Shown: positions 6,943 to 20,344 of the stretch, piece by piece | Layout: the number at the start of each line of letters is the position of its first letter | Position numbering within the stretch: the stretch's first letter is position 1 | UHGV virus genome: UHGV-0068509 | Origin: a virus | Direction: 5' to 3' (one strand) | DNA length: 31,722 nt | The notes under the pieces: generated by a model | The model's database searches: none | What the model saw: the letters and a program-made list of their open reading frames with translations, nothing else | What the model was told of the DNA's origin: nothing | Translations under genes and position numbers: made by a program

Positions 6943-7643
6943 CAGTCAATCAGCCCATGTAATCTAAGTGCTGTTTCAAGCGCCAGAATACGCTGCCGCG
7001 CCTGCTGCAAACCTGTAGCGAGAGCTGCGACTTCGGATTGTGTGTACGTAGTGCCGACCGTGTATGCCTGGTTAGCGTTGAATGCGCCGAGGAGTGCCGT
7101 TCCGGTTGCCGCTGTCCATCCTGTCTGACGAGCACCGATAACCTTGGTTCCGCCGACTGAATAGGATGTTGCTACGTTGAGGGGGGATGCCAGCGATTGT
7201 GTTGCTGTTGCTGTTTTCGATACGTAATCGTCCTGCAATGCAGAAATATTTCCTTCAGCCTCCGTCACTCTACCATCGAGAGCACTGACATCAGCCTGCA
7301 AGGTGACTATTTCACCTTCAGCCGTGGTTAGTCTGACATCCAGCGACGCGATTGCATTGGTATTTGCAGTAATACGGATTTCATGGTCGTCTACGTCGAT
7401 GCGGAGCTGACGAATTCTTTCTTCGTGATCGACCAGAATCACATCCTGCTCATCGTTCCTGACTTGTGCATCATAAGCACCCTGTCCGGCCTCGTTGGCC
7501 TTGTTAGCTACGTTACCAACATCAGTGCCCTGTGCAATAACGTAAAGCAGATACGACTGCGAGAAGATATTGCGTGGAAGTATTGATGTATCGAGCCGCG
7601 TCGCCTGCACAATAACAGGGGTGTTGAGATTCGAATCAGCCAT
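6942..7643 (-). CDS. Tail needle (cell-puncturing) protein, P22 gp26-like
   Basis: True start is the internal [18 protein letters not shown]; its ATG overlaps the upstream stop (TAATG); coiled-coil heptads ([34 protein letters not shown]) and C-terminal ...ALRLHGLID as in P22 gp26. Confidence 0.85.
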
Positions 7644-16777: not shown

Positions 16778-17518
16778 TTATTTCGTAGGGAAAGATGTGA
16801 TCACATCAACGATGGGCTGGATTGAAAATCCAATACCAATTCCGGAGTTAGCATTCAGCGACATCATGTCCGAAACAATCTGTAGCGATCTACCAAACAT
16901 GTCCGCCATTTGCCCGAAATTAACACCCATGATCTCAACACTTCCATGCAGACTTGCTGAAGAAAGATATTGTCGCAGTTGGGCTATTTCTTGGCTGAAA
17001 GCATCAGCCTGATCGCCCATTATATATCTACGCTGGGTGACGATACCTACTAACTCTCCCGAATCTCGATCAATAATAGGTCCTCCTGAGTTCCCCCCAT
17101 TAACCATTCCATCAAGCGTAAATCGGCCATGCTCCATCGGTGCTGAAATAATTGCCTCACTTGTTAGTAACAGAGGTATCCCATGCGGGTATCCTGCAAA
17201 AATTACTTTTCTGCCCCTGGATGGAGCAAACCCAGCAGATGGTTGAAGGACTGTTCTTCCGCCAGGAAGGGGGGATTGCAATTGCATGATAGCAAAGTCG
17301 TTACTACCATCAACATGCAAAATTTTAGCGTCGATACTCTCATTTGCTTCAGTTTGAAGAATGACGTCATTGATTTGACACTCGGTTTGTAAGTCACAAC
17401 AGGTGGCCACAACATGCAAGTTAGTTACAACTAGGTTTTCTCGCATGAAACTGAACCCGCTACCACGAGACTTACCTGCAATGACCTGAAATGTTGCGTT
17501 GGCTAAGTTTTGATGCAT
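16778..17518 (-). CDS. Trypsin-like (S1/HtrA-type fold) serine protease, cytoplasmic, no PDZ domain
   Basis: 246-aa ORF with strong RBS GGAGGA; catalytic motifs in canonical order His (VVTNLHVV), Asp (DFAIMQL), Ser (GNSGGP); no N-terminal signal peptide; about 75-aa C-terminal tail ending GIGIGFSIQPIVDVI. Confidence 0.85.
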   Translation of the reverse strand: MHQNLANATFQVIAGKSRGSGFSFMRENLVVTNLHVVATCCDLQTECQINDVILQTEANESIDAKILHVDGSNDFAIMQLQSPLPGGRTVLQPSAGFAPSRGRKVIFAGYPHGIPLLLTSEAIISAPMEHGRFTLDGMVNGGNSGGPIIDRDSGELVGIVTQRRYIMGDQADAFSQEIAQLRQYLSSASLHGSVEIMGVNFGQMADMFGRSLQIVSDMMSLNANSGIGIGFSIQPIVDVITSFPTK

Positions 17519-17630: not shown

Positions 17631-18068
<438 letters not shown>

Positions 18069-18224
18069 TAAGGCAGGAGGTTCATCTTTCAGTGGCTGCC
18101 AGTGTTATTTCCCCACTTACTGGCTTGGGTTGTTTCGTGGTACTGCCGTTAACTGGTGGCCCAGAATAAATTCCGGTTTCATTATCAAGCCCACCCGTAG
18201 ATGGGCTTTGTAATGCCTACATGG

Positions 18225-18695
18225 TTAAATGATTTGCCAGTCTTCTGCTAGAACATCAGTCTGACTAGCCAGCCACGGTACTAATTTATCGTCCGCTGTC
18301 TTCATGCAAATGCATGGCAGCGTCACAAGGCCATTAACTCCGTCCAGGTCACACTCAAACCCCCAAGCATTCTGCTGGATAATGAACAGATACATCCCCT
18401 TACCATTCCAGCCAGCACGGGCAACTTTATTCCCCAACTTGAGCGCTTCAATGGCAAGGCCGAAACTTAGCCCTGATACCGGACGATAAGCCTTTTCGAA
18501 TACTTCTTTTGGACTCCAGCTAACGTAGCCATCAAAGCGATCGGTGTTAGGTTTTCCGCCATCAAGATATTCAACCAGATAGCCTTCATCCTCGCCGTTT
18601 TCTCCGGCAGGAAGCTGCCAGCCACGAAAATCGTTATATGCCTGTCTCGTCATCGGAAAGGCGTTAATCAGTTTTACGCCAATATGCTGGGTCAT
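18225..18695 (-). CDS. DUF2829-family protein (Tad2-like candidate Thoeris anti-defence sponge fold) with an extra N-terminal region
   Basis: C-terminal half AIEALKLGNKVARAGWNGKGMYLFI...MKTADDKLVPWLASQTDVLAEDWQII resembles the DUF2829 consensus as I recall it; start uncertain (ATG at 18695 used; an in-frame GTG at 18788 would give 187 aa). Confidence 0.55.
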   Translation of the reverse strand: MTQHIGVKLINAFPMTRQAYNDFRGWQLPAGENGEDEGYLVEYLDGGKPNTDRFDGYVSWSPKEVFEKAYRPVSGLSFGLAIEALKLGNKVARAGWNGKGMYLFIIQQNAWGFECDLDGVNGLVTLPCICMKTADDKLVPWLASQTDVLAEDWQII

Positions 18696-18775
18696 AAAAT
18701 TACCTATAGAGTTGGGAATAAAAAGCCCCGCATCGCGAGGCTCATTAAATGGACTTTGTGATTTGCAAAACGTGT

Positions 18776-19246
18776 TTATTTCAGGCACTGCTCTTTGATG
18801 TATTCCTGCAGATAGCCAACCTGCTTCGTCACTGTGACGATTCGCTCTCTGAGGGTGAAATAATCCCGTTCAGCGGAGTCAGTAAGTCGGGGGCCGGTAA
18901 CATCGCCCAGGCCGCCGGTGCTGGTCGTTCCGTTCGCGGGACAGTTTGCGTTGAGCTGCAGCCGCTTACGGCCAGCAATGACATCGCTATGCAGACGCTC
19001 AATGGTTTCTTTCGCATCAGCCAGTTCTCCGGTGTATTTGGCATCCAGTGCAGCGACATCACGCTGGCGGGTCTGCATGTCTTTAATGGTGGCGGTCGCC
19101 AGGAGGAGTTTCTCAGTGGCCTTATCGCGCTGGTCTCTGTAAGTGATGGCGTTGTCGCGGTAGTGGTTCACGAAGAAAGCCAGTGCGCCGATTAACGCCA
19201 GCACCAGCAACTGCAGCCAGTAACGCTTAACCAGTGCGCTAATCAT
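18776..19246 (-). CDS. Rz: Rz-like i-spanin
   Basis: N-terminal TMD ([26 protein letters not shown]), [20 protein letters not shown] and C-terminal ...[10 protein letters not shown]...EQC similar to lambda Rz; ATG overlaps the endolysin stop. Confidence 0.9.
18829..19017 (-). CDS. Rz1: Rz1-like o-spanin (lipoprotein) embedded in the +1 frame of Rz
   Basis: [20 protein letters not shown] lipobox signal followed by a Pro-rich mature region; nested in Rz. Confidence 0.75.
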
Positions 19247-19692
19247 GACAGGAACAGAGCTCGCTCTGCCTTGCGGCGATTCGTGAGCCCCGGCATCACC
19301 TTTCCGCCTGATTTATTCCAGCGCAGAAATTCATCTGCCGCGCCTTTTATATCGCCAGCATTCAGCTTTTTCAGCAGTGTAGATGTGGAAAGAGCACGCG
19401 ACCCAACGTTGTAAGCGAACGACACCAGTGCGTCGAACTGGCCTTGTGTCAGCTTCACCCTGACAACTTTCAGCACGTCATTCTCATAACCAACAAGCCC
19501 TGTTTTCAGAAGCCTGTCAGCGGTTTGCTGGTCGATAGTCATACCGCGCTTTACTGGCTTTCCGTCAACCGGATGGGTCCAGCCATAGCCGATGGTCCAC
19601 GGCGCATCTCCCGTTCCGGGGTCTGGGTAAGCAGTCAGCCGACAACCTTCAAATTTTTTTATCAGAGCAATTCCGTCAGGACTGGTTTGCAT
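19243..19692 (-). CDS. Endolysin, phage lysozyme (GH24, T4/P22 gp19-like)
   Basis: Start at [16 protein letters not shown] with RBS GGGAG; motifs [18 protein letters not shown]...TIGYGWT and C-terminal [11 protein letters not shown]. Confidence 0.9.
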
Positions 19693-19999
19693 CGTCAACT
19701 CCCGCCTTTTTTGCTGCAAGTTTTTTAATAAGATTGCCGATCGAATCGGTGCCGATGTATCCAATAAAGACGCTGGCTATGTAGGCGAGGTTGCTGCTCA
19801 GGCCGATAAAGTCCAGAAGGTCACGAACGAACCAGGCAATCATCGCGCACATCAGCGCATCAATTAGCGTTTTTGTTACCGCGCCGCCGTTATAGCGACC
19901 ACGCAGATACGCCATGATAAAAGCCAGCATTGCACCAATACCCTGCTCCTTGGCGGCAAGTAGCGCAGCGATGAAATCTTGTTTGTATGGCATTTTCAT
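19676..19999 (-). CDS. Class I holin, lambda S-like, with dual-start motif
   Basis: Start [39 protein letters not shown] strongly resembles lambda S including the Met-Lys-Met dual start; RBS GGAGGTGA. Confidence 0.85.
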
Positions 20000-20107
20000 A
20001 GGCCTCACCTCCGATTTTTCGGATGGCGCTGTGTGTGTATGAAAAGGATCAGGCTTCACTGGCTGGATTTTCAACAAAGCACGTAGTGATTGATTCCCGT
20101 GAGCCTG

Positions 20108-20188: not shown

Positions 20189-20264
20189 TGGTGCCGGTTA
20201 ACGGATTTGAACCGCTACCTATTCACTTACAAGGCGACCGCTCTACCATTGGAGCTAAACCAGC
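20189..20264 (-). tRNA. tRNA-Thr (anticodon UGU), 76 nt with encoded CCA
   Basis: Hand-folded cloverleaf: 7-bp acceptor stem (one G-U), 4-bp D stem with GG in loop, anticodon loop CT-TGT-AA, T loop TTCAAAT, discriminator A, CCA. Confidence 0.7.
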
Positions 20265-20269
20265 ATGTT

Positions 20270-20344
20270 TGGCGGGACAGCGTGGACTCGAACCACGATA
20301 AGAAGGTTAACAGCCTTCCGTAATGACCTTTATACGACTGACCC
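20270..20344 (-). tRNA. tRNA-Asn (anticodon GUU), 75 nt with encoded CCA
   Basis: Hand-folded: perfect 5-bp anticodon stem, loop CT-GTT-AA, perfect T arm CGTGG-TTCGAGT-CCACG, acceptor stem with one mismatch, 4-nt variable loop, CCA. Confidence 0.6.

Follow-up and report, generated by a model that had tools for sequence, protein, structure and literature searches.

A two-domain gene behind the lysis cassette

We analysed a gene in UHGV virus genome UHGV-0068509; the whole 31,722-nt stretch of DNA is referred to here as the window. The gene lies on the minus strand at 18225–18695 (156 codons plus the stop codon, starting at ATG 18695), and its product matches phrog_872 over the full length (E = 1e-68). 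The product comprises two domains, both encoded on the minus strand: an N-terminal companion domain (hereafter N-domain; residues 1–75, 18471–18695) and a Tad2-like domain (PF11195; residues 77–156, 18228–18467), the latter identified using Pfam, phmmer and Foldseek. The C-terminal domain is a genuine member of the Tad2 family. As such, the Tad2 half is a routine further member of a known family, while in its two-domain form the protein is a variant that has yet to be characterised. A lysis cassette (18776–20077) lies immediately upstream, also on the minus strand. According to Pfam matches and open reading frames (ORFs), it encodes a lambda-type holin (PF05106), an endolysin/lysozyme (PF00959) and Rz (18776–19246; PF03245, E = 1e-42), with an embedded ORF for the Rz1 lipoprotein (18829–19062). 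Downstream of the gene are a 59-residue ORF, a trypsin-like peptidase gene, a DUF2560 gene, and packaging and head genes. This arrangement agrees with an earlier reading of the sequence (the original prediction), which had placed the gene directly downstream of the spanin genes and within the late operon: the gene is on the same strand as the late genes and has no promoter-like site of its own.

The original prediction had placed an ORF at 18225–18788 and considered its start ambiguous between ATG 18695 and an in-frame GTG at 18788. The longest minus-strand ORF does span 18225–18788, giving 187 residues when read from the GTG; both peptide strings quoted from it occur in the translation, and both candidate start codons are present. 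The ambiguity itself did not hold up: the start is ATG 18695, and GTG 18788 is excluded. More specifically, all 38 aligned homologues begin at a methionine equivalent to ATG 18695. Homologues are mostly 154–175 residues long, and the Kapi1 version reaches 173 residues because of an internal insertion, its N-terminus being no longer. External annotations by PGAP and Pharokka called a 471-nt coding sequence in E. coli EC2001 and phage Louie, whose genes are 99–100% identical to that of the window. A Shine-Dalgarno sequence, AGG, can be read 7 nt 5′ of the ATG (18703–18705, minus strand).

Further support for the ATG comes from the spacer of 80 nt that separates Rz from the gene. A consensus scan and folding identified an intrinsic-terminator-like hairpin with a U-tract in this spacer (18716–18743, minus strand). 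The hairpin proper (18743–18723) has a 9-bp stem with six GC pairs and a 3-nt loop, is followed by UUUUU, and lies inside the supposed GTG extension; it is identical in Louie and EC2001. The terminator-like structure is local only, as the folding of the 91-nt spacer region as a whole did not differ significantly from that of shuffled sequence (z = −0.78). A gene starting at the GTG would share 13 nt with Rz, and indels of −2 and +1 nt (Louie, EC2001) just past the Rz stop codon break its frame. A 187-residue protein-database entry (P0001) is a longest-ORF call. At the other end of the gene, directly 3′ of the stop codon, is a GC-rich hairpin without a U-tract (AAGCCCA...TGGGCTT, 18183–18205, minus strand).

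The Tad2 domain and its ligand pocket

Residues 77–156 matched the Pfam profile PF11195 ('Tad2-like') with an E-value of 9.3e-27 and 93.8 bits (cut-off of 25), far beyond chance, and the match covered essentially the whole profile (positions 2–73 of 73). Searches of PDB chains with phmmer returned 8sme, 9eib, 8v3e, 9kzr, 8kbi and 8wjd with E-values of 4e-17 to 7e-14. The best match was SPO1 Tad2 (8sme/8wje, E = 4e-17); the others were Myroides Tad2 (9eib, 8v3e), AcrIIA7/HgmTad2 (9kzr, 8kbi) and SptTad2 (8wjd). An AlphaFold2 model of the protein (pLDDT of 91) recovered the Tad2 fold, consisting of α1 followed by an antiparallel sheet with short helices, and Foldseek matched the model to the solved Tad2 structures 9eib, 8wjd, 8smf and 8kbj with a probability of 1.0 and target-normalised TM-scores of 0.6–0.84. 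Profile, sequence and structure comparisons thus bear out the earlier assignment of the C-terminal half to the DUF2829/Tad2 fold. NCBIfam and PADLOC scans of the protein yielded no match.

The residues that bind glycocyclic ADP-ribose (gcADPR) have been described for SPO1 Tad2 and HgmTad2 (10.1101/2023.05.01.538930, 10.1101/2023.11.15.567273). In SPO1 Tad2, W25, N26, W73, D79, T78, I63 and T65 contact 1''-3' gcADPR, and D67, H71 and S76 coordinate water. In the window's protein, the first half of this pocket corresponds to a GWNG loop (G95, W96, N97 and G98; 18402–18413, minus strand), which aligns with W25/N26 of SPO1 Tad2 and W21/N22/G23 of HgmTad2. The second half corresponds to a WLASQTD motif (W141–D147; 18255–18275, minus strand), which aligns with W73, S76, T78 and D79 of SPO1 Tad2 and with W87, L88, S90, T92 and D93 of HgmTad2. 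Overall, eight of the ten SPO1 contacts are identical: W25, N26, T65, D67, W73, S76, T78 and D79 correspond to W96, N97, T133, D135, W141, S144, T146 and D147, respectively. The remaining two, I63 and H71, are replaced by M131 and V139, matching M76 and V84 of HgmTad2, which contact adenine. The WxxSQTD motif is retained in ~105 of 114 close homologue clusters, these being the closest clusters in which the β2–β5 segment could be delimited.

The β2–β5 segment is itself a hypervariable insertion (residues 105–127; 18315–18383, minus strand). Among the closest homologues, its mean identity to the query is 15%, as compared with 74–80% for the Tad2 core and 80% for the N-domain, and at least 25 sequence classes of the segment occur among the 114 clusters. 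In HgmTad2, the equivalent segment forms a second pocket, which binds cyclic dinucleotides. None of the HgmTad2 residues of this cGG/cGAMP pocket (R31, S47, F70 and N85) has an aligned counterpart in the window's protein, whose insertion is 23 residues long versus ~41. The hypervariable segment probably tunes a second pocket and would therefore confer extra specificities.

Two known relatives share some features with the window's protein and differ from it in others. SPO1 Tad2 (gp34.65; 8SME/8SMF/8SMG) shares the PF11195 profile, the fold, ~46–48% identity over 82 residues and, in addition to the eight contacts, the C-terminal SQTDVLAEDW. However, it is an 89-residue single-domain protein of a Bacillus myovirus with another β2–β3 insertion, whereas the window's protein has 156 residues and an N-domain. 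HgmTad2/AcrIIA7 (8KBI–8KBM, 9KZR) shares the gcADPR pocket, including the M76/V84 pair, and its full-length form is also extended at the N-terminus. By contrast, that extension is helical and unrelated to the N-domain, and the cGG/cGAMP pocket of its long insertion is not conserved in the window's protein.

The N-terminal companion domain and its partners

The original prediction had noted an extra N-terminal region of about 70 residues. This region comprises ~75 residues beyond the Tad2 fold, but it is a discrete, widespread and conserved domain rather than a loose extension. It is marked by K8 and the motifs PMT(R), RGW, GYLVEY, DGGKPN and SWSP, and was modelled with a pLDDT of 90 as β-β-α-β-β-α. 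Residues 1–75 had no Pfam match at E ≤ 10 and no NCBIfam match. Searched as a single sequence against the PDB, the N-domain gave chance matches only (E > 0.5), and a profile search returned nothing at E ≤ 10. In fold searches, which covered the PDB and BFVD, the N-domain resembled DUF1653 (PF07866; PDB 3BE3) and the Tudor/SH3-like RNA polymerase-interacting domains of Mfd (RID) and CarD, at low scores, with 7–17% identity and no profile match; this likeness is one of fold class only. The N-domain profile scored below zero bits against each of Acb5A, LockinA, cbTad1, T4 Acb2 and SPO1 Tad2, excluding the N-domain as a Lockin, Acb5, Tad1, Acb2 or second Tad2 copy. The label PF13876 ('N4 gp49/Sf6 gp66') proved to be wrong for the N-domain: the domain has no Pfam match at the above threshold, and PF13876 is Acb4 (N4 gp48). 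PF13876 and PF21825, the Sequestin family, cover other portions of fusion proteins, apart from the N-domain.

To describe the spread of the N-domain, we searched 1.84 billion cluster representatives. Matches with E ≤ 1e-3 were obtained for 1,587 proteins, placing the domain in at least that many protein clusters; 846 matches had E ≤ 1e-10. The domain is present in 137 isolated-phage records, and the N+Tad2 form occurs, by a rough estimate, in a third of Tad2-encoding phage records. When the 150 top-scoring representatives with the N-domain were scanned against Pfam, Tad2-like domains were identified in 53, PF21825 in 38 and PF13876 in 20. Further architectures included triple fusions of Acb4, N-domain and Sequestin, a reversed Tad2+N arrangement (P0218) and fusions to RyR; in the local census, the N-domain stood alone in 19 proteins. 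Overall, its partners are five sponge families, each validated independently: Tad2, Sequestin, Acb4, Lockin and RyR-Tad. Divergent copies are fused to Acb4 in gp41 of p-crAssphage (BK010471; locus L008, 1201–1650) and in Clostridium phage vB_CpeS-1181 (locus L009, 1201–1665). A divergent stand-alone copy is encoded by a 78-residue ORF (AWN06211) beside the virion RNA polymerase (vRNAP) gene in the N4-like Erwinia phage phiEaP8 (locus L010, 1468–1704), inside the N4-type hotspot described below. The discovery of Sequestin rested on its Pfam fusions to Tad2 and Acb4; the supplementary tables of that paper contain many N+Sequestin and two N+Lockin proteins, in which the N-domain was passed over.

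The N-domain is more constrained than its partner. In 59 distinct genes, comprising the window's gene and its IMG/VR homologues, the median ratio of nonsynonymous to synonymous substitution rates (dN/dS, Nei-Gojobori) was 0.07 for the N-domain versus 0.33 for the Tad2 core, values that are indicative only, the pairs being non-independent. Arg, Lys, Trp, Tyr, Asp and Glu account for most of the invariant residues of the N-domain, and the invariant set does not change with the fusion partner.

In the literature searched, the sole description of the N-domain that we found concerns RyR-Tad, gp68 of Pectobacterium phage CB1 (Fedorova et al. 2026 preprint, 10.64898/2026.06.04.730250). The preprint names Tad3 in the same loci, yet terms the gp68-type N-domain an unknown fold. 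It reports that residues 1–86 of the protein, gp68_N, were inactive alone against type I Thoeris and crystallized as a β1-swapped dimer. The window's N-domain matched residues 1–70 of gp68 with 34% identity over 67 residues in BLASTP (E = 5e-6) and 24 bits in a profile search. In BFVD, Foldseek matched it to the RyR-Tad orthologue of Yersinia phage TG1 (E = 2e-4; query-normalised TM-score of 0.75). These data confirm distant homology between the N-terminus of gp68 and the N-domain. The two proteins also share a two-domain organization with the sponge at the C-terminus. They differ in that the partner in gp68 is an RyR-repeat gcADPR sponge, not Tad2, and in that the gp68 N-domain lacks RGW and DGGKPN, both nearly invariant in the main subfamily. 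Because the RyR-Tad homologue is a β1-swapped dimer, the minimal role of the N-domain would be self-association that organises or stabilises the sponge assembly.

Genomic setting and proposed function

Within positions 7000–31722 of the window, ~45–47% of positions align at ~94% identity to the P22-like coliphages E212, Kapi1 and CUS-3, and phage Louie encodes a protein identical to that studied here. N4 gp49 and the DUF2829 protein of Klebsiella phage KP8 have the same N+Tad2 composition, with 47% identity over the full length, and adjoin Acb4 (gp48 in N4) just before vRNAP; the gp48-gp49 locus is a published anti-signalling hotspot of N4-like phages. However, that hotspot lies in the middle-gene/replication region of lytic podoviruses, whereas the window's gene follows the lysis cassette of a temperate phage. 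In the P22-like phage Huey (PQ850609; locus L006, 2236–2616), a 126-residue Acb4 (PF13876, E = 3e-35) is encoded just after N+Tad2, as it is in IME10. The Huey protein is 45% identical to N4 gp48, and its annotation as an 'anti-CRISPR protein' is probably a misannotation. This pairing suggests that Huey has a small islet of anti-signalling genes behind its lysis genes. Among the 80 closest IMG/VR loci, 77 encode N+Tad2, with a separate Acb4 within ~3 kb in 26 and Sequestin in four. Elsewhere in the window, a search yielded neither an Acb4 nor a Sequestin gene.

The slot after the spanins has varied occupants and contexts. In EC2001, the lysis cassette that precedes the gene belongs to a prophage whose packaging module is of another kind (P27-family terminase small subunit), and in other lambdoid phages the slot holds Rha or KilA-N genes. 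Together with the Acb4 genes described above, this variety points to an accessory/anti-defence locus. Near-identical DNA was found in 45 of 5,426 complete E. coli genomes, but at full length in only eight. Most of the others share only the first ~84 codons (18444–18695 of the window, ~98% identity) and diverge from about codon 85, a pattern that indicates recombination at the domain boundary. Because the matches mostly stop there, a conserved N-module appears to have been recombined with different Tad2 modules, an example being P0038, which carries an SIGD motif.

Several other features of the region were recorded. Between the Tad2 gene and the DUF2560/terminase genes, a 59-residue orphan ORF (17631–17810, minus strand) precedes a gene for a 246-residue S1/trypsin-like peptidase (16778–17518, minus strand; Trypsin_2, E = 3e-20). 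The protease part of this protein resembles protease domains of defence proteins (PADLOC RT-Protease_XI, E = 2e-15; weakly Avs1b and LmuA). Isolated phages essentially lack the module, which only 21 of the 5,426 E. coli genomes contain, so a moron of a prophage or a defence gene is one possible identity. Of two segments downstream of the Tad2 gene, ~17930–18024 (~95 nt) has thousands of E. coli matches at the ends of IS21-like (IS100kyp) elements, and the sequence at ~18011–18158 corresponds to the 3′ portion of a gene for a Rha-family regulator. By these matches, the segments look like remnants of an insertion sequence and of rha, the usual occupant of the slot. Finally, the Q-like antiterminator region and the holin gene are separated by genes for tRNA-Thr(TGT) and tRNA-Asn(GTT) (20189–20344, minus strand), as in Kapi1.

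The best-supported reading, and one that we consider probable, is that the gene encodes a late-expressed Tad2 sponge for cyclic ADP-ribose (cADPR) isomers derived from TIR proteins. The 156-residue protein would then serve a temperate, P22-like coliphage as a two-domain anti-defence factor. Judging from the Tad2 proteins with solved structures, it is expected to be a homotetramer, and gcADPR would be held in pockets between protomers that are lined by W96/N97 and W141/S144/T146/D147. The predicted ligands are 1''-3' gcADPR (3'cADPR) and 1''-2' gcADPR, produced by Thoeris TIR proteins; their sequestration would keep the ThsA effector from being activated, blocking type I Thoeris. The gene would be transcribed with the late genes by a Q-modified polymerase passing the hairpin after Rz, and the N-terminal 75 residues would constitute a separate, strongly constrained module that accompanies many sponge families. 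Consistent with a functional gene product, the gene is conserved intact in more than 100 close clusters and dN/dS is below 1 in both domains. Among Tad2 homologues, four of five diverse ones, and later many of 18, inhibited Thoeris, and known ligands include 3'cADPR, His-ADPR, N7-cADPR and cyclic di- and mononucleotides (10.1101/2025.08.24.671296).

Some observations weigh against this reading. The N-domain is absent from all 18 Tad2 homologues assayed in 10.1101/2025.08.24.671296. As Tad2 homologues differ in ligand specificity, 3'cADPR is a best guess rather than a certainty. The assembly could also differ, since α1, the tetramer helix of solved Tad2 proteins, follows the N-domain after a very short linker. 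A purely dimerising N-domain would leave its stand-alone ORFs and unusually strong conservation unexplained. Finally, the late expression that we infer has gene order as its sole basis.

The stand-alone ORFs and strong conservation of the N-domain are central to an alternative that we consider possible but doubtful, namely that the protein is a dual inhibitor in which the N-domain itself sponges another immune nucleotide or binds a defence protein. Its fusion to five sponge families follows the logic of Acb4-Tad2 (Pasteurella phage Pm86) and Acb4-Sequestin (Pseudomonas phage Ab09 gp59), which likewise unite small anti-signalling domains in one polypeptide; in those proteins, however, both halves are validated sponges, whereas in the window's protein only the Tad2 half is from a validated family. 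The N-domain occurs in either order relative to its partner, in triple fusions and as stand-alone ORFs, and its polar and aromatic residues are invariant irrespective of partner, with a dN/dS of 0.07. The same fusion logic yielded Sequestin, but a Pfam-based analysis would miss the N-domain. Against this alternative, assembly modules can also be fusion partners, and gp68_N lacked activity in type I Thoeris tests and serves as a dimer interface, although RGW and DGGKPN are missing from it. Stand-alone ORFs, partner-independent invariant residues, very low dN/dS and the five partners favour an autonomous function over a purely structural one. We would nonetheless propose only tentatively that the N-domain represents an unrecognised phage anti-signalling family with its own ligand or target, such that the protein would neutralise two signals. 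Under this proposal, the N-domain would be the most promiscuous of sponge fusion partners, ranging from coliphages to p-crAssphage and Clostridium phages, and overlooked because it has no Pfam model. The evidence urging caution here is a single negative experiment on a divergent homologue.

A different ligand for the Tad2 domain is unlikely in our view. Under this alternative, the domain would mainly target His-ADPR (type II Thoeris), N7-cADPR (type IV), cCMP/cUMP (Pycsar) or cyclic dinucleotides (CBASS). Tad2 homologues with such activities exist, the domain shares 55% identity with the Pycsar inhibitor Tad2_70, and the second-pocket segment is hypervariable in this family. However, the pocket matches those of the 3'cADPR binders SPO1 Tad2 and HgmTad2 rather than the SVSD motif of MoTad2, and the short insertion has no counterparts of the HgmTad2 cGG-pocket residues. 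Moreover, such activities would be compatible with 3'cADPR binding as well.

The annotation of the identical or near-identical Louie and Huey genes as 'anti-CRISPR protein', together with the similarity to AcrIIA7 chains 9kzr and 8kbi, would make the product an AcrIIA7-type anti-CRISPR. This is very improbable: when AcrIIA7/HgmTad2 was re-tested, it left SpyCas9 uninhibited both in vitro and in vivo and proved to be a Thoeris/CBASS sponge, and the label is inherited by similarity, the Acb4 homologue of Huey being labelled likewise. E. coli is not known to have type II-A CRISPR-Cas, which also counts against this annotation. The position between the spanins and the terminase could point to a lysis-associated or structural accessory protein instead of an anti-defence factor, but this is the least probable of the alternatives, as relatives occur in the replication-region hotspot of N4-like phages, far from lysis genes, inspection revealed no signal peptide or transmembrane segment, and the family has solved ligand complexes.

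As a Tad2 homologue, the gene adds little. Its position indicates that temperate P22-like and lambdoid coliphages carry anti-Thoeris/anti-CBASS genes in a counterpart of the N4 hotspot that follows the lysis cassette. The main lead is the companion domain, which has neither a Pfam model nor a PDB match, is more constrained than the sponge to which it is attached and, within the literature searched, has so far been noted just in passing. An N-domain that binds a signal or a defence protein would define a counter-defence family that is both new and very widespread; one that serves in assembly would explain how phages construct multi-sponge arrays. In either case, an N-domain profile would better annotate thousands of phage proteins, some of which are currently labelled 'anti-CRISPR'.

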